Of a stretch of DNA of 64,000 nt, positions 41,117 through 51,412 are shown in pieces. The notes beneath the pieces were generated by a model that made no database searches, was not told the DNA's origin, and worked only from the letters and a program-made list of their open reading frames with translations. Made by a program: the position numbers and the translations under genes. Position 1 is the stretch's first letter. Every line of letters starts with the position of its first letter. The stretch covers positions 3,584,001-3,648,000 of the forward strand of contig CBDBGH010000003.1 of NCBI GenBank assembly GCA_965205265.1. The letters run 5' to 3'. Origin of the DNA: Alphaproteobacteria bacterium. GTDB taxonomy: Bacteria; Pseudomonadota; Alphaproteobacteria; Bin95.

Positions 41117-41569
41117 TCAGCGGCAACATGACTTGCGCAGCGCGACCACGGGATTCGCCCTGGCCGACAAGCCTTGCACCTCTCCGAGAAGCCGGAGTCG
41201 GTCGGGTTCGACCGCAAAGGCGACCGCCGACAGGTATCCCCCGGACCCGGACGATCTGACGGTCACAACGGCGTCGGCGCGGCCGTCCCCGTCGATATCC
41301 TCTGCAAGGAGACGGTCAACGGCGCCGTCACGGTGGCGAACGAGGCCGTGCGCAAAGCTGTCATAGGGCCAGTCCGGATCGACGGGCGCATATAGCCTGA
41401 CGGCATAGCTGCCTATGCTTCGTGGCTCTCCCTGCCCCTCCGTCACGGTAATCAGGTTGCCGGTTTGCGGCATCGAAACCTCGAACCTTGCGGGAGGTTC
41501 CGCCACCGCCTCCTTTAGCGCGAAGATTGCTGCCAGGGCACAGAGAAAACGGCGGCATGGAATGCGCAT
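41117..41569 (-). CDS. pliI: PliI-family inhibitor of invertebrate-type lysozyme
   Basis: Signal peptide; EG.GEPRSIGSY..RLY, RDG, DIDGDG, SSGSGGY (SGxY motif). Confidence 0.85.
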   Translation of the reverse strand: MRIPCRRFLCALAAIFALKEAVAEPPARFEVSMPQTGNLITVTEGQGEPRSIGSYAVRLYAPVDPDWPYDSFAHGLVRHRDGAVDRLLAEDIDGDGRADAVVTVRSSGSGGYLSAVAFAVEPDRLRLLGEVQGLSARANPVVALRKSCCR

Positions 41570-41576
41570 TGCGCGG

Positions 41577-43917: not shown

Positions 43918-45309
43918 CTACTGCGCCTGCTTGCAGCCGCTGGTGTCCCAGACTCGCTGGCCGTCTGCACCCAGCGTCCAGGTCGCCGTGCCCTCATGGT
44001 CGCCGACGCACTTGCCCGTGCCGCTCGTCGCGGGAGCGGCCTCCGAGGTCCCGGCCGATGCCGACGCCTGCGGCCCGATGCGCTGGCCGTCGGCCGGCGC
44101 CCACAACTCCGGCATCTCCATGCCGAGATGTTCGGCGACCTCCGTCCAGAACACCGCTTTGCGGTTGCCATCGATCGCGACATGCAGCTGGCCGCGCGTC
44201 CAGCGCCAGTGCGCGATGCGGTCCGGACCGCCATCGGCGCGCCGGGCCCGCACCGTGCCGTCGGCCAGGAAGGTGAAGTCCTTCCATTCCGACGGCATCC
44301 AGGGCAGCGCCACCGGCTCGCCCGACTCGACCAGGCGGTCCGTCAGCCGGAACGCCGCATGACGATGACCCGTCGGCAACACCGGGAACGGGTAGCCGAT
44401 GGGATGGCGCAGCGCCGGCTGGCCGGGGATTTCGATAAGCGCCCACTCCTGTCCCCTGGCGTCGATCTCCGTACGCAACACGCCATAGGCCGTGAGCTTG
44501 CCCTCATCGTCCAGCCGCCAGACCTCGTCCGTCCAGATGGTGTCCTGCGAAGTGGCCTGCCCGCCCACGAAGACGTAACCCGTCTCCGACGGAGACAGCA
44601 GGATGTTGCCGTTCTGCGCCTTCACGAACGCCAGCACTTCTTTCCTCGTCGTGGTCGGCGCGCCGCGCGAGGCCCCCAGGCCGGTCCGGCCCGGCGCCGT
44701 CAGGTGCGAGCCCGGGAAGTGGCGGACCGGCGCGTCCGGGTCCTGGCGGCGCAACTCGTCCATCTTCAGGGACGTCTGCTTCTCGTTGATCCGGATATGG
44801 TCAGGGAGCTTCAGCTGCGGGCAGGCGTCCGCAAGGGCGCGCGGCCATGTGTCCTGGATTTGCGCCGCGTTCGACACGATCCAGCGGCCCTTGCTCCATA
44901 TCTCGGTGTTGAACGCGCCCGTTTCCGGATCGTAGAACTTCGACGCATATTTCCTGACGCCGCCGCCATAGTTCCATTCGGTCCACATCCCGGACCGCTT
45001 TTTGACGAGCGCCCAGCGGGTGTTGGTCCGGCTGATCCAGTGCAGCTTCCCGTCCAGGCGCAGGCGGCCGGCGCATTCGATTACCGTCCCGTCGGACGCG
45101 TAAACGAGACCCTGGACGACATTGCTGAACCTGCCGAGCCCGGTGAACACATTGACCCGGCCGGTCATGAGCTCCCGGTAGAACGCCTCGCTATAGGGCG
45201 AGTAGTTCACATGCACCCTGGGATCGATCTTCCGGGCCTGCCCATGCGCCACGCATGCCGCCAGCAGCGCGCAGGACAGCAGGACAGCCAGTCCTCTCAT
45301 GACACTCAT
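43918..45309 (-). CDS. Hypothetical exported protein or lipoprotein (463 aa)
   Basis: Signal peptide with LAAC; Trp-rich; good coding pattern. Confidence 0.7.
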   Translation of the reverse strand: MSVMRGLAVLLSCALLAACVAHGQARKIDPRVHVNYSPYSEAFYRELMTGRVNVFTGLGRFSNVVQGLVYASDGTVIECAGRLRLDGKLHWISRTNTRWALVKKRSGMWTEWNYGGGVRKYASKFYDPETGAFNTEIWSKGRWIVSNAAQIQDTWPRALADACPQLKLPDHIRINEKQTSLKMDELRRQDPDAPVRHFPGSHLTAPGRTGLGASRGAPTTTRKEVLAFVKAQNGNILLSPSETGYVFVGGQATSQDTIWTDEVWRLDDEGKLTAYGVLRTEIDARGQEWALIEIPGQPALRHPIGYPFPVLPTGHRHAAFRLTDRLVESGEPVALPWMPSEWKDFTFLADGTVRARRADGGPDRIAHWRWTRGQLHVAIDGNRKAVFWTEVAEHLGMEMPELWAPADGQRIGPQASASAGTSEAAPATSGTGKCVGDHEGTATWTLGADGQRVWDTSGCKQAQ

Positions 45310-45417
45310 CGTCTTCTCCTCTGCGCCCCTGCCGTCCGGCTGTCCTGCCGGATCCGCGGGCGCCGCTTCGCAATTGTCTCCGCGGCGGTCTGCCGGACCG
45401 GCCGGCGCCTTCCGCCT

Positions 45418-46332
45418 TCAGCGTTGCCTGACGTCAAGGCGCTGATGGCGGAAGGCGCCGGCCGACCAGGCCCGGCTCACATGCGCGAACCGGTCCATCC
45501 ACAAACGCGCGTGCGAGGGCAGCATCCCCCTCTGCGCCCTCCGCCTCATCCGCGCCGCCTGCACCGCGAGGATCCGTGCATTCGGCAGGCCCGGCCCGGA
45601 CAGGTCCTCGATCCCGACAAGGTCGAGCCCCGCGGCGCGGACCTTTGCGGCAAGGCTTTCCGCATCTTCCAGCGCGCACTCCATCCACGATTCGCAGATC
45701 GGCGCGATATAGGCGCGCACGGTCTCCGGGGCGAGCCCCGACGCCATCATGTGGTCGAGGCCCACCAGGCGGCCGCCGGGCTTCAGCACCCGGGCGCACT
45801 CCCGCAGGAACCGCCCCCGGTCCGCCATGTGGCACATCGCTTCGATGGTCACCACCGCGTCCACGGACCCGTCCGGCAGCGGAAGCCGCTCCGAGCAGTC
45901 GGCCTGGCGGAACTCCACGAGGTCCTCCAGGCCGTCCTGCGACGCCAGCTCCCGGGCGAGGCCAAGCTGCCGCCCGCTGATATTCAGCCCAAGGACCCGG
46001 CATCCCTTCGCCGCCGCCAGGTGCAGCGCCGTTCCGCCGACGCCGCAGCCCGCGTCCACGACCAGCTGTCCGGCGCCGATCGCGGCCGGCGCAACGACAG
46101 CGTCGATCATCCTCACCACGGCGTCATGGAGCCGGCTCCGGTCGAGCCAGTCCCCCTCCCCGCTCCCGCAAAGCATCGGCTCCTCGCCGGGCTCGAAGAG
46201 CCCGAAATGCAGGTGCCGCGGATGCCAGGCCGACAGGTAGTAACCGCCCTCATCGTCGTAATGCGCGGCGACGATCTCCGCCTGACGCGACCGGTCGACC
46301 GACGTCGCTCCGGATGCAAGGGCCACCGTCAT
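45418..46332 (-). CDS. Class I SAM methyltransferase, sterol/tocopherol/prenyl C-methyltransferase-like
   Basis: HY...W..HLHFG, VDAGCGVGG, IEAMCH, RVLKPGG; TGATG overlap with the upstream gene. Confidence 0.85.
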   Translation of the reverse strand: MTVALASGATSVDRSRQAEIVAAHYDDEGGYYLSAWHPRHLHFGLFEPGEEPMLCGSGEGDWLDRSRLHDAVVRMIDAVVAPAAIGAGQLVVDAGCGVGGTALHLAAAKGCRVLGLNISGRQLGLARELASQDGLEDLVEFRQADCSERLPLPDGSVDAVVTIEAMCHMADRGRFLRECARVLKPGGRLVGLDHMMASGLAPETVRAYIAPICESWMECALEDAESLAAKVRAAGLDLVGIEDLSGPGLPNARILAVQAARMRRRAQRGMLPSHARLWMDRFAHVSRAWSAGAFRHQRLDVRQR

Positions 46333-47357
46333 CAATGCCTCCTCTCGACGCAAAACGCCGCAAACCCGCCCAGCGCCGCACGCACGGCGCCTTCCGGGAA
46401 GAACCCGAGGGAGTCCACGGCCAAGTCCACGCGGGCGTGCGCGAGGGCCCATGTCCTCGCCAGCGCGCCCCGCCGGTCCAGGACCGCGAGCGCCCGCTCG
46501 AAGTCCCCGGGACGCCGGTCGCCCTCCTCCAGGGTGCGGCGCCAGAACGCCCGCTCGGCTTCGTCGCCGTACCGGAACGCCAGCACGACCGGCAAGGTCA
46601 CCTTGCCGCCGGCGAAGTCGTCGCCGACCGTCTTGCCCAGTTCGGCCTCCCGGCCTGACCAGTCCAGCGCATCGTCCGCCAGCTGGAACGCAATCCCCAG
46701 GTTCTTCCCGAAGGCCTCCAGCGCCGCTGCCGCCTCCCGCGAGGCGCCGGCGGACAGGGCGCCGAGCCGGCAGCAGGCCGCGAACAGCGAGGCCGTCTTC
46801 TTCGATACGGCTTCCAGACAGGCCTGCTCATCGATATCCGGGCTCCCGACATCCTGCATCTGGCGCAGCTCGCCATCGACCATGACAGAGGTCACGTCGG
46901 CGAACAGTTCCACCGCTTCCCGGGGGCCGGACTCCAGCATCAGCTGCAAGGCTCGCCCGAGCAGGTAATCGCCGACCAGGACGCTGGCCTTGTTGCCCCA
47001 GAGCGCATTGGCGCTCGCCGCCCCGCGCCGCAGTGCGCTCGTATCGACGACATCGTCATGCAGCAGAGACACCATGTGGAACAGCTCCACGGCCGCCGCC
47101 AGAGCCGCCGGGCCTTCTCCCGACGACCCGCAGAGACGCGCGGAGGTCAGGGTCAGGATCGGGCGAAGGCGCTTGCCGCCCGCCCGGGCGATATGGCCGC
47201 CCAGGAGAGGGATCAAGGCCGTCCCGGCTTCCATCCGCTCCGCGATCAGGACCTCGACCCGGGCCATGTCCGCGCTCACGAGACTGCGCAGCCGCGCAAG
47301 CGCCGAAGCCGGAGAGGCCTCCCGGGCCGGGACCGCGAACCCGCCATCCGCCATCAT
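46332..47357 (-). CDS. trans-Polyprenyl diphosphate synthase (IspB-like accessory paralog)
   Basis: GGKRLRP, FARM LLHDDVVD..LRRG, KTASLF, SARM FQLADDALD, GKVTLP. Confidence 0.92.
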   Translation of the reverse strand: MMADGGFAVPAREASPASALARLRSLVSADMARVEVLIAERMEAGTALIPLLGGHIARAGGKRLRPILTLTSARLCGSSGEGPAALAAAVELFHMVSLLHDDVVDTSALRRGAASANALWGNKASVLVGDYLLGRALQLMLESGPREAVELFADVTSVMVDGELRQMQDVGSPDIDEQACLEAVSKKTASLFAACCRLGALSAGASREAAAALEAFGKNLGIAFQLADDALDWSGREAELGKTVGDDFAGGKVTLPVVLAFRYGDEAERAFWRRTLEEGDRRPGDFERALAVLDRRGALARTWALAHARVDLAVDSLGFFPEGAVRAALGGFAAFCVERRH

Positions 47358-47363
47358 GGGCCT

Positions 47364-49472
47364 TCAGCCGCCGGACCCCCAGCGCTGGTCGAGTTCGCGC
47401 ATGGCGCCGACATACATGCCGAACGCCGCCTCGTCGTCACCGGCCCGGATGGCGGCCACGGCCTCGTCGATCCGCGCCCCGATCCAGTCCCACTCGGGAT
47501 GGTCCTGCGGGATCGCGGCGACGATCGCCGGGGCCCGGCGATAGTATTGCGCCACCATCGCCATGCGCTCCGGCGACGTCATCATGTAGCGGTCGCGGAA
47601 CGCGCGCAGCGCCGTCAGCGTCGGGCCGTCATCCGCCTCGCCCCTGCGCTCCACGACAGCCGTCGTCAGGAAACAGCTGCCGCCGCCGCCGCCATCGCCG
47701 CCGCTGCCGCCTTGGCTACCGGAATTGCTCTGGCCGGGGGCATGACCGCCCGTCACCCCGCCGTCGACACCGCCGATCCCGCCGACCTCGCCTCCGCCGC
47801 TGCCTCCGCCGCTGCCTCCGCCGCTGTTTCCGTCACCATCACCATCACCGTCACCGTCACCATCACCGTCACCATCACCGTCACCATCACCGTCACCGTC
47901 ACCATCACCGTCACCGTCACCATCACCGTCACCATCACCGTCACCGTCACCATCGCCATCACCGTCACCGGACGGCGGCGGAGGCGGTGCGACGCAGGCC
48001 GAGCAGGCGCAGGTGTCGGCCTGGATGATATGCGGGTTGGATGTGTGGCGGGCGTCGTGCCGATGGTAGTACCACCGGATTTCCGGGTACCCGGAGGGGT
48101 CGCCACCGCTGTGCCCGGGCGGGCATGAGCAGCGCGAGGCGCAGGAGGAGTCCGTCTGCGCGTCGTAGCAACCGACGAAGTTCTCCTGGATCCACTGGTC
48201 GCCCCGGAAGACGCCCGTGACGCCCGTCGAGGACAGGCCGCCCGGCTCCACATACACCCGCGTGTGCGGCTGGCTCCAGCCATAGGGCTGCGAGGCCGGA
48301 GAGTCCCAGCCCGGTTTTTGTTCCTTCCAGACCGAACGATGCTTGCGCAGCAGCGTCCGGCTGCCCACGGCGCCGCCGGATGTGTATCCCGACGGGCAGT
48401 ATGACGAGGTCGCGCAGCCCACCGTCGGCGGCGTGGACGGCGTCGGGAACGGCGCGCCCGTGCCGGCGTAATCCGTCTGATCGTAGAAATTGCTGCCGTC
48501 CGCCTTCGAGACCGGCACCGTATGGCTCGAGGCCCCGCCCGTCACCGTGTTCGGGCTCGAGGCCGCAGAGCACAACTGGTCGAAATGGTGCCACCGGGGT
48601 GCCGTCGTCCCCCGGATGTCAACCGGTAGGTGGCAGCCATTGTGGACCACCGCCTCGATAATATGCGCCCCCGATTCCCCGTCGCCCGGCGGCGCGCACT
48701 GGCCGTGCGCCGGCAGCGCAACCGTCACGCCGTTATAGACGAAAGTCCCGGCGGCCCGGGCCGCGCAGGTCCCTGGCCAGCGCGCCATGTCCGCCCCCGA
48801 CCAGGGATGCAGCTCGACCGGGCGCGTCTGGCTGTAGCGGATCTCCCCGACCGTCGCCGTCGGGTCGCCGCCCGGCATCGGGCAAGCGCGCTCCCAGTCG
48901 GTATGTTCGTTGCGCCGCTGGGTATTCCCCCAGCCGAACGGGTCGGTCACCTCCGAGACGAGCCCCACGCGGCGCGCCGGCAGGCTCATGCAGCCGGGCA
49001 GTGCCACCGTGGGGTGCCCGGACTGCGGCATGCCCACCGCCTGACCGCCGGTGATCCACTGCAGCCCGCCCTCGGTCTGTACGGTTCTCTGGTCCGTGCC
49101 CCTTAGCCTTACGTCGCTCGCATAGACCGCCAGCACGTCGTCACAATACGCGAACGACAGGCCCCGGTCGGTCCATTCCGCTTGCCAGATGGCAGAAACG
49201 GCCGCTGGCAGGCCCGGGCTCGACGGGCCGGACAGCCAGGAATACGGGGCCCTTTCGTTCGTCGCGTCGGGATCCGCCGCTGGCGGGCGGCGCTCGATCC
49301 AGGCCGACAGGGCCGCCCATGCCTGCTGGATCGCCGACGCATGCGCCCGCGCCGCATCGCGGCGGTTGTCGCGGTCGATGTCAGCCGCAATGGGGGTCAG
49401 TGGTATTAGCCACAGGGCGGCCGCGATCAGCGCGGCCGCCCCCAGCCGAGAAGGTGTGCGTGCATGTGACAT
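47364..49472 (-). CDS. Secreted Cys-rich protein with (GD)23 tract and C-terminal CFI-box-CTERM-like domain
   Basis: Signal peptide, many Cys, Pro5-(GD)23-Gly linker, GGGGSCFLTTAV...LRAFRD.YM...YY..AP.IV. Confidence 0.8.
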   Translation of the reverse strand: MSHARTPSRLGAAALIAAALWLIPLTPIAADIDRDNRRDAARAHASAIQQAWAALSAWIERRPPAADPDATNERAPYSWLSGPSSPGLPAAVSAIWQAEWTDRGLSFAYCDDVLAVYASDVRLRGTDQRTVQTEGGLQWITGGQAVGMPQSGHPTVALPGCMSLPARRVGLVSEVTDPFGWGNTQRRNEHTDWERACPMPGGDPTATVGEIRYSQTRPVELHPWSGADMARWPGTCAARAAGTFVYNGVTVALPAHGQCAPPGDGESGAHIIEAVVHNGCHLPVDIRGTTAPRWHHFDQLCSAASSPNTVTGGASSHTVPVSKADGSNFYDQTDYAGTGAPFPTPSTPPTVGCATSSYCPSGYTSGGAVGSRTLLRKHRSVWKEQKPGWDSPASQPYGWSQPHTRVYVEPGGLSSTGVTGVFRGDQWIQENFVGCYDAQTDSSCASRCSCPPGHSGGDPSGYPEIRWYYHRHDARHTSNPHIIQADTCACSACVAPPPPPSGDGDGDGDGDGDGDGDGDGDGDGDGDGDGDGDGDGDGDGDGDGDGDGNSGGGSGGGSGGGEVGGIGGVDGGVTGGHAPGQSNSGSQGGSGGDGGGGGSCFLTTAVVERRGEADDGPTLTALRAFRDRYMMTSPERMAMVAQYYRRAPAIVAAIPQDHPEWDWIGARIDEAVAAIRAGDDEAAFGMYVGAMRELDQRWGSGG
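47832..47969 (-). repeat. Coding hexamer tandem repeat (GGYGAY)x23 = (Gly-Asp)23
   Basis: 138 bp read directly. Confidence 0.95.
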
Positions 49473-49805: not shown

Positions 49806-49842
49806 CCGATTGTCAAAACAATCGGATTGTTTTGACAATCGG
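49806..49842. promoter_or_regulatory. Perfect 37-bp nested palindrome in a divergent intergenic region
   Basis: CCGATTGTCAAAACAATC-G-GATTGTTTTGACAATCGG; function unknown. Confidence 0.6.
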
Positions 49843-50206: not shown

Positions 50207-51412
50207 ATGCACATGCATAGCGTCAGGGTGCTCGACCTGCCCGATCACGACACCGACAGCGACACGATCCGGGAGCGTCTGGAGGCCTTCCTGACCGGTC
50301 TGCGCCAACGGCGCGCGCTGACGGTGTATTTCGATCTCGTCGAGGAGCGGAAGCGGCGCCATGCGCCGGACCCGCCGCCGCCTCTCACCCGGGACGACCT
50401 CACTGACGTGAAGGACGCGGTCGGGCTGCACAGCTTCAAGGCCCGTTCCGGGGGCCCCCCGTCTTGGCCGCGCCGGGGGGAGCCGCTCCCCTCCGACGCC
50501 CTGAGCCGCATCGGCCGCCGGGTGAAGACCCTTGTGGAACGCCGCAGGCGGGCGAACGGCCTCACCCATCTCAAGGAAAAGGACAAGGACCAGGCGAGGC
50601 GCATCCGCGCCCTGATAGGCGAGGTGCCGGCCCCGGGCCTGGAGTCCGAGGACCGGGCGGACGAGATCGCGGCCGCCCTGCACGAGGAGATGCCCTGGAT
50701 GGCCCCGGCGACGGAGGCGGCCTGGCATGCCTGCCGGCGCAGCGGACGCCTGGGCGAGCCGGTGCGGCTCGGGCCGATGCTGCTGGTCGGTCCGCCCGGC
50801 ATCGGCAAGACCCATTGGGCCCGCCGGATCTCCGACAGGCTCGGCACCCCCTCCTGCACCATCGACGCCTCGCAGGGGCTTGCCTCCTTCTCCCTTGTCG
50901 GCACGGAGAGCGGCTGGTCCAGCTCCCAGCCCGGGCGCCCGCTCGAGACCATGCTCCAGCATCGCATCGCCAATCCCGTGATTGTAGTCGATGAGGTGTG
51001 CAAGGCCAGCGCCCCGCGGTCGTCAGCCGGCTTCTCGGCGGCCTTCTTGCCGGCGCTGTTGGGCCTGCTGGAGCCGGAAAGCGCGCGCGAGTGGACCTGC
51101 CCCTTCTTCAAGGTGAAGCTGGACATGCGCAATCTCAGCTGGGTGATGCTGGCCAATACGCTCGCCACCGTGCCGGAGCCGGTGCTGAGCCGCGCCCACG
51201 TGCTGCCGATCCCGGATGTGACGCCGGCGCAGTTGACGGATTTCGCCAGGCGCCGGGCCGCGGCCCTGGGGCTGGAGCCGCCGGCGGTGGACGCGGTGCT
51301 CGAGACCCTCGACCGCGCCCCCGCCCTGCTGCCGCGCCGCCTCTCCCTGCGTGATGTGAACCGCGTATTGGAGCGCGCCGTCGAACTCGCCGCGCGTCCG
51401 ACGATGCACTGA
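50207..51412 (+). CDS. Stand-alone Lon-like AAA+ ATPase (no protease domain)
   Basis: LLVGPPGIGKT, W.SSQPG, NPVIVVDEVCK, VPEPVLSR. Confidence 0.85.
   Translation: MHMHSVRVLDLPDHDTDSDTIRERLEAFLTGLRQRRALTVYFDLVEERKRRHAPDPPPPLTRDDLTDVKDAVGLHSFKARSGGPPSWPRRGEPLPSDALSRIGRRVKTLVERRRRANGLTHLKEKDKDQARRIRALIGEVPAPGLESEDRADEIAAALHEEMPWMAPATEAAWHACRRSGRLGEPVRLGPMLLVGPPGIGKTHWARRISDRLGTPSCTIDASQGLASFSLVGTESGWSSSQPGRPLETMLQHRIANPVIVVDEVCKASAPRSSAGFSAAFLPALLGLLEPESAREWTCPFFKVKLDMRNLSWVMLANTLATVPEPVLSRAHVLPIPDVTPAQLTDFARRRAAALGLEPPAVDAVLETLDRAPALLPRRLSLRDVNRVLERAVELAARPTMH

Follow-up and report, generated by a model that had tools for sequence, protein, structure and literature searches.

Our findings show that the CFI-box domain of a secreted protein, an extra paralog of the polyprenyl diphosphate synthase IspB and a methyltransferase make up an optional block, which sits between a cargo region and a lipoprotein gene and occurs behind different cargos in a family of mobile loci. 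One member of this family lies in the 64,000-nucleotide stretch of an alphaproteobacterial genome analysed here (the window; G000:C3:3584001-3648000, with G000 being the source genome; other G, L and P numbers denote genomes, loci and proteins). Its three genes are on the minus strand and encode P0001 (47364-49472; 702 aa), a secreted cargo protein with a signal peptide, a Cys-containing N-terminal region, a Gly-Asp linker and the CFI-box domain, P0002 (46332-47357; 341 aa), an extra trans-polyprenyl diphosphate synthase with a remodelled chain-length tunnel, and P0003 (45418-46332; 304 aa), a class I S-adenosylmethionine (SAM) methyltransferase of the RebM/MitM/TleD type and near-obligate partner of P0002. 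Read from these sequences, the block may supply a methylated prenyl group to the invariant Cys residue of the CFI domain (Cys600), a proposal that we take seriously, albeit short of calling it probable.

P0001 and P0002 are separated by a 6-bp gap (47363-47358) and the stop codon of P0002 has one base in common with the ATG of P0003 (TGATG); arrangement, spacing and motifs of the three genes are as given in a preliminary description of this DNA, which had been right about the trio but overlooked the pilus context (see below), a fourth gene and the optional nature of the block. This fourth gene (43918-45309, minus strand) is co-oriented, starts 108 bp downstream of P0003 and encodes a predicted lipoprotein of 463 aa (lipobox LAAC, mostly beta). 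It is part of the module and follows the CFI gene or the block in all 11 loci of the family as well as a cargo gene without CFI domain in L028. Chance juxtaposition, which the preliminary description had allowed for, is contradicted by the same order of CFI, synthase and methyltransferase genes in the window and in G011 (71% and 59% identity) and by purifying selection on both enzymes (rough ratios of nonsynonymous to synonymous rates of 0.29 and 0.39 against G011). A lack of linkage in other genomes had been set beforehand as grounds for refutation; the linkage is instead found again elsewhere, and CFI domains stay with the synthase while the cargos change.

The 11 loci, window included, came from searches with the CFI-box model NF041770 in overlapping sets of 61 relatives, 401 genomes of the class, 8 of another family, 37 of the order and 401 of the phylum. 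Type IVb pilus genes, some of them truncated, are retained in 10 of the 11, and the order in the family is pilN, pilO, cargo-CFI and lipoprotein, then ATPase, PilR, PilS and PilV-like genes. The window holds the stretch from cargo to lipoprotein without pilus genes; it represents an accessory module detached from the R64-like type IVb pilus operons that conjugative elements carry. In G011, PF08805 (33.1; cut-off 22) and PF00437 pass their cut-offs, with TIGR02520 (142.9; cut-off 287.65) and PF04917 (21.7; cut-off 27.5) scoring below theirs. In G011, PilN-like, ATPase, PilS and shufflon-N-like genes resemble those of the R64/IncI thin-pilus operon and lie beside a DotG/TraO-type transfer region, the latter seen in G009; unlike R64/IncI, a cargo-CFI-(enzymes)-lipoprotein module is placed after pilO and ahead of the ATPase region, and the window has this module only. 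Near-identical pilus-operon elements (L025, L026, L115-L118) occur twice per genome in genomes of two families, suggesting recent transfer.

Within the family, a synthase stands directly behind the CFI gene in three of the 11 loci read as DNA. Two of these (window and G011) have the complete block, and in G009 the CFI gene is followed at the same spot by a very divergent synthase (41-44% identity to the P0002 clade) and no methyltransferase. In the genus, exactly three of 17 genomes have a third PF00348 gene, in each case directly behind the CFI gene, at a distance of 6 bp or 3 bp or, in one genome, overlapping it by GTGA. Among the other 20 genomes of the taxonomic family, three show a third PF00348 match, namely a longer gene in G052 and two short fragments, and CFI matches are missing from all 20. 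L028 carries the closest cargo (62% identity) and a similar lipoprotein, and is devoid of the CFI domain and both enzymes together, as is L001. We count the synthase-only arrangement of G009, the position of all three extra synthases of the genus and the joint absences in L028 and L001 in favor of a prenyl link between block and CFI cysteine. On the same side we place the tree conflict between cargo and CFI domain, the conserved polar residues of the latter, the lack of Rce1/CPBP protease matches, the tunnel changes of the synthase and the alignment of P0003 to TleD, all described below.

Trees of 21 cargo regions and 23 CFI domains (LG+G4) support exchange of the block between cargos. In the cargo tree, the six synthase-linked proteins do not group together and a single clade is rejected (approximately unbiased test, p-AU 0.003), whereas in the CFI tree they form two starred groups joined at 71/87 (unstarred). 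The cargos of G011 and G015 are sisters (70% identity), yet a grouping of their CFI domains is rejected (p-AU 0.0004, for a group chosen post hoc). Judging by these trees, CFI domains move along with the synthase and not with the cargo to which they belong and, since L028 lacks all three parts, the exchanged unit is CFI-synthase-methyltransferase. The (Gly-Asp)23 low-complexity linker of P0001 (residues 502-548; 47829-47969, minus strand) is a candidate recombination point between cargo and block; with cargo and CFI trees in conflict across it, it may act as a breakpoint.

Public contigs widen this picture, although co-residence was inferred there from equal longest-contig sizes with the sequences unread (G000 and G011 were correctly returned) and cluster members were included for a subset of the proteins. 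On this basis, 14 of 18 contigs with a member of the methyltransferase clade match a contig of the synthase clade (14 of 15 at 5 kb or more), and the reverse pairing holds for 14 of 16 contigs of at least 5 kb. Four synthase-linked CFI cases would thereby be added to the three read as DNA: CFI proteins P0170 and P0185 were matched to contigs of both enzymes and P0007 to one of the synthase, with the caveat that a common contig of 94 kb or 188 kb is not proof of adjacency, and a 4,119-nt contig in run X6, the size of P0009's contig, covers 46427-47785 of the window at ~95% identity. Eight of ten CFI representatives looked up matched no enzyme contig and were counted as unknown rather than negative. 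In run X3, depth is higher at 45526-47785 (599 versus 314 and 224); we did not use this, depth not being copy number and the region having repeat edges.

The CFI domain itself (P0001 residues 600-702; 47364-47675, minus strand) passes the curated cut-off of NF041770 (43.4 versus 40 bits, at residues 600-656 of 702) and resembles the catalogued CFI-box-CTERM family in being C-terminal, Cys-led and placed after a flexible linker; the subfamily here differs in having no membrane tail and in its coupling to isoprenoid enzymes. Cys600, Thr603, Ala605, Gly611, Arg626 and Tyr643 are invariant in an 89-row alignment, Asp614, Arg623, Asp627, Tyr644 and Tyr687 are kept in 87-88 rows, and Pro648 is near-invariant as well. 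This pattern suggests that the invariant Cys and the polar Asp/Arg/Tyr residues (87-89 of 89 rows) have a catalytic and not a structural role. Other prenyltransferases use clusters of Arg and Tyr to bind diphosphates. An AlphaFold2 model (predicted local distance difference test score, pLDDT, 91.6) is assigned five helices and no strand by DSSP, and a maximum 19-residue hydropathy of 0.72 leaves no membrane helix after the Cys, the prediction thus being a five-helix bundle. Fold searches with this model came back blank (PDB Foldseek best E 1.4; VIA best Z 5.2; viral best E 1.5), as did a PDB sequence profile (best E 0.098) and the Atlas (matches <0.9 and unnamed), which does not establish a new fold.

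Across the wider family, which counts 7,080 representatives at E up to 0.001 and of which we examined the best 150, the residue in front of the Cys is Gly in 87 of the 144 that were parsed. Among the 74 longer ones scanned, five have an eCIS-core domain, two RTX repeats and one LysM, and none has a prenyl-synthase domain. Outside the pilus-related family we collected 38 CFI loci (16 viral, 4 plasmid or phage, 2 from the class and 16 from the phylum, the latter with 1.5-kb flanks only), among them a dynamin operon, clusters of phage head genes and proteins with a membrane tail. In these (L123:2826-5279, L124:2412-5396, L137-L152), CFI is found on a protein beside a dynamin gene on an Escherichia coli plasmid and on large phage proteins, the phage ones adjoining portal, capsid or tail-like genes.

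An invariant Cys near the C-terminus of exported proteins recalls MYXO-CTERM/myxosortase and CAAX systems, and lipid modification of the Cys before cleavage is discussed in the available part of the myxosortase preprint (10.1101/2023.06.07.544157). MYXO-CTERM is, however, a short motif plus membrane helix, whereas CFI is a folded 100-residue domain and all five carrier genomes (97-100% complete) lack a match to the Rce1/CPBP protease family (PF02517; controls positive in 11 of 14), so no myxosortase-type partner was identified. A parallel search with PF00432 matched no genome, but matched no control either and is uninformative.

P0002 scores 226.6 bits against PF00348, has both Asp-rich motifs intact (DDVVD and DDALD) and is 56% identical to the housekeeping IspB at C3:1519854. 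It belongs to a 12-member clade separate from housekeeping IspB and reaches 244.6 bits with the equivalog model NF008140 for the latter (cut-off 412), a score to be read without the housekeeping copy as a control. Five tunnel-region changes to larger residues (I93F, T95M, L152F, I159M, V164L) are fixed, distinguishing 12 of 12 clade members from 25 of 25 housekeeping enzymes. By our own mapping through motif spacing, the counterparts of positions 93, 133 and 152 are the CrtE pocket residues I84, L126 and L151, and position 159 matches the residue three places ahead of G(Q/E), at which, according to PMC7261888, a bulkier residue led to a shorter product in a plant geranylgeranyl diphosphate synthase; in the three-floors model set out in that source, the changes are located at floor positions. 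This makes it fairly likely that product chain length has changed and is probably shorter than the housekeeping quinone tail, although the signals from the floor positions are mixed. An alternative would be that the extra synthase supplements or alters quinone side chains and the methyltransferase takes part in quinone synthesis, with no link to the pilus module. The closest solved structures of P0002, long-chain octa- and decaprenyl synthases, fit with this, as does the retention, in most clade members, of small residues at positions -5 and -4 relative to the first Asp motif. Given that a housekeeping IspB is present, that the tunnel changes are fixed and that UbiE/UbiG/MenG models score P0003 at 33-47 bits, far below cut-offs, we consider quinone supply decidedly improbable.

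For P0003, the preliminary description had suggested a sterol-type methyltransferase (SMT) and, with Hedgehog as no more than an analogy, a methylated prenyl lipid or host sterol used to process or anchor the protein at G-S|C-F. We examined P0003 (METHYLTRANSFERASE) as an SMT candidate and rejected it: it matches Methyltransf_11 (11 Pfam matches in total) but not the Sterol_MT_C domain PF08498, used to define SMTs in the available part of PMC10070321, and is ~28% identical to the SMT of its own genome. The latter is encoded outside the window (G000:C3:2417240-2418271; PF08498 at 84.5 bits), and another SMT is found in G009; these bacterial SMTs are of interest in their own right for biomarker questions. 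IEATCH and region I (GWGxSFHF type), which we take to be the diagnostic SMT motifs and of which region I was also read from the genome's own SMT, occur in none of 120 P0003 homologs. HLHFG and IEAMCH, pointed out earlier in P0003, are indeed present, yet IEAMCH is not kept in its own clade, where 10 of 15 members have IDGACH. As for the Hedgehog parallel, Cys600 stands as the candidate site but is preceded by Ser (Ser599) and not by Gly. Hint-SRR cholesterolysis likewise involves a Cys-led C-terminal domain behind a secreted N-terminal part, but the Hint fold is all-beta, carries TxxH and has Gly in front of its Cys (PMC9163320), whereas the CFI model is all-helical and its alignment contains no TxxH. 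That the methyltransferase alkylates a host sterol, which a Hedgehog-like reaction then ligates, could draw on the true SMT elsewhere in the genome and on the Gly before Cys in most parsed CFI representatives; facing the missing PF08498 and SMT motifs, the low identity to the genome's SMT and the helical model without TxxH, it is highly improbable.

Identity as a geranyl, isopentenyl or farnesyl diphosphate (GPP, IPP, FPP) C-methyltransferase was tried too and rejected (NF041943 at 47.2 bits versus a cut-off of 400; PDB members at 36-50 bits). The best PDB profile matches of P0003 (96-119 bits) are of RebM/MitM/TleD type (3BUS, 6UV6, MitM 8ZC8 and 5GM1), and these indicate kinship, not substrate; 3BUS is presumably RebM. 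Despite only distant identity, P0003 aligns to TleD over profile positions 12-249 including IESLCHM, a shared motif after the SAM site. According to the available part of PMC9715568, TleD methylates an attached terpene moiety. On this comparison, P0003 could C-methylate an alkene in a prenyl group or be an enzyme of O/N-methylation. A scan with the methyltransferase alignment gave, in the 80 of 501 loci returned, distant sequences only and no member of the close clade; two of its loci (L043, L078) with a synthase nearby in housekeeping-looking contexts were left out of all counts.

The option of O/N-methylation allows for another scenario, namely that P0003 caps a protein terminus freed at Cys600 (N-, S- or carboxyl methylation), like the last step of CAAX processing. 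It could be backed by the next-nearest relatives of P0003 lying beside NHLP precursors and YcaO enzymes (L023, L024), by the best NCBIfam match being the N-methyltransferase NF041675 (87.5 bits, far under the cut-off of 550) and by the weak scores against prenyl-diphosphate C-methyltransferases. However, no Rce1-type protease is found in the carrier genomes and G009 does without the methyltransferase, so that we regard such capping as improbable. The two peptide clusters (L023:5836-15366 in G008; L024:8054-13901 in G005) each have two convergent methyltransferases, one of them P0003-like.

How might a methylated prenyl group reach the CFI cysteine? We envisage that the prenyl diphosphate made by P0002 differs in length from the housekeeping quinone tail, being probably shorter, and that P0003 methylates this chain in a TleD-like manner or caps the product, both of which seem fairly likely. 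With more uncertainty, the Asp/Arg/Tyr cluster of the CFI domain would bind the prenyl donor and attach the prenyl group at or beside Cys600, by which, equally uncertain, the pilus-associated cargo would be anchored through a lipid. Where the block is missing, CFI domains would draw on housekeeping prenyl diphosphates, and the block would supply a tailored one. Of the earlier interpretation, the linkage to isoprenoid enzymes is borne out and the sterol and Hedgehog parts are not, with lipid anchoring still a live hypothesis. A bolder version sees the CFI box, which occurs on secreted, phage-particle and injected proteins, as a self-contained, cis-acting prenylation module: the small helical domain would bind a prenyl diphosphate by its conserved Asp/Arg/Tyr residues, need no separate transferase and lipidate, perhaps cleave, its host protein at the Cys, and in the elements described here a dedicated synthase and methyltransferase would customise the anchor. 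This we hold to be rather unlikely.

Several observations weigh against the prenyl link. Both enzymes are missing from eight of the 11 family loci (G000-C1, G015 and two each in G030, G191 and G226; CFI domains are 97-99% identical among three compared of the latter six) and no synthase is found near any of the 38 CFI loci outside the family (16 of them with 1.5-kb flanks only). A synthase-linked CFI clade plus G009 is not rejected (p-AU 0.70), nor is a single origin of the synthases (p-AU 0.19). Since G009 can be joined to the clade, one origin suffices and the cases, probably of single origin, are not independent evidence. In the tunnel, one change goes the opposite way, to a smaller residue (F133 to L/I; in one member, the L is preceded by A), and for some long-chain enzymes of bacteria the floor model gave wrong predictions, as stated in PMC9409350. 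The best structural relatives of P0003 are sugar O-methyltransferase-type enzymes, and its next-nearest kin (41-45% identity) belong to NHLP/YcaO peptide clusters that have no synthase. A recombination event within the repeat linker would drag along all that lies downstream, with no need for a function. Topology is the greatest difficulty: a signal peptide is present on the cargo and absent from both enzymes, which are presumably cytoplasmic; exported protein and enzymes would need to come together before export, unless the lipid were flipped.

A close rival is hitchhiking, in which the enzyme pair produces a methylated isoprenoid that stays free, be it a membrane lipid, a signal or a metabolite directed at the host, was inserted once behind a CFI gene and is kept there by exchanges in the upstream repeat linker, with CFI function being separate. 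Consistent with this, the enzymes are linked far tighter to each other (14/15 and 14/16 contigs) than CFI is to them (3/11 family loci; 0/38 outside), a single origin is not rejected, and 20 nt that follow the methyltransferase in G011 match exactly the end of the CFI gene of G015, which has no block, plus its spacer, as would be left by simple insertion or deletion. Moreover, methyltransferase-prenyltransferase operons are known (PMC8677530, in its available part), including ones without terpene synthases. Such operons for IPP or dimethylallyl diphosphate methyltransferases (humMT, catMT, azuMT, longestin; PMC9401056, as far as available) are alike in pairing a methyltransferase with a prenyl-chain synthase, but the block here has an IspB-derived synthase, is located in a pilus operon and scores weakly as C-methyltransferase, our comparison covering solved prenyl-diphosphate C-methyltransferases and not the IPP methyltransferase sequences themselves. 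Hitchhiking sits less well with the deeply diverged G009 synthase, which is still coupled to a CFI gene in the absence of a methyltransferase, with the lack of extra synthases elsewhere in the genus and with the joint absence of CFI domain and enzymes from L028 and L001. We consider it nearly as likely as the prenyl link, and likewise short of probable.

P0001 has an N-terminal hydrophobic stretch (19-residue hydropathy 2.0) and 17 Cys residues; its residues 1-500 have seven homologs (36-63% identity), three with and four without CFI box, and distant kin of the cargo are found behind pilN-pilO in type IVb pilus operons. A metagenome scan with the cargo alignment gave no match. The lipoprotein has no Pfam or NCBIfam match, and its model (pLDDT 72.7) returned only diffuse beta matches in Foldseek (template modelling score at most 0.15) and no usable one in the Atlas. 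A 24-bp inverted repeat with one mismatch (45400-45463) spans the P0003 stop codon at the downstream edge of the block; it has no T tract and is absent from the terminator-like sites predicted.

The window is flanked by transposase-like genes, which we take to be IS66- and IS21-like by their motifs, and its GC content marks no island boundary. Next to the module is an AAA ATPase gene (50207-51412; Lon-like ATPase domain, no protease domain), to which, judged by eye, an ATPase in a larger degraded conjugative region of G000 looks similar. Between module and ATPase gene, a palindrome (49810-49838) scores as sigma-70-like promoter on both strands and is a possible, sequence-predicted regulator-binding site. 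The same island has a gene for a PliI-type periplasmic lysozyme inhibitor (41120-41575; PF16743, 117 bits). The degraded region (G000:C3:4775000-4997000; L001, L169-L171) has type IVb pilus genes over ~200 kb and holds a CFI-less cargo paralog and a lipoprotein paralog. G000 also has a second CFI gene on contig C1 (L002:8909-11671), whose frame continues past the CFI domain over a lipoprotein-like region in another frame.

In the literature searched, which did not cover subscription journals and supplements, 'CFI-box' was found in no paper and nothing relevant joined type IVb pili with polyprenyl or isoprenoid terms; the available part of the myxosortase preprint (10.1101/2023.06.07.544157) makes no mention of CFI. 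The association of CFI domain and isoprenoid enzymes is real and conserved and, as far as we can see, unpublished. For a large catalogued domain family on which this literature is silent, the locus family provides a genomic clue to the substrate class, and close relatives with the block (G011), the synthase only (G009) or neither (G015, L028) offer a natural experiment. If the prenyl link is true, it would amount to a new lipid-anchoring route in bacteria and phages and possibly a one-domain lipidation tag; if false, the enzyme pair would still represent an unstudied methylated-isoprenoid pathway on conjugative elements.

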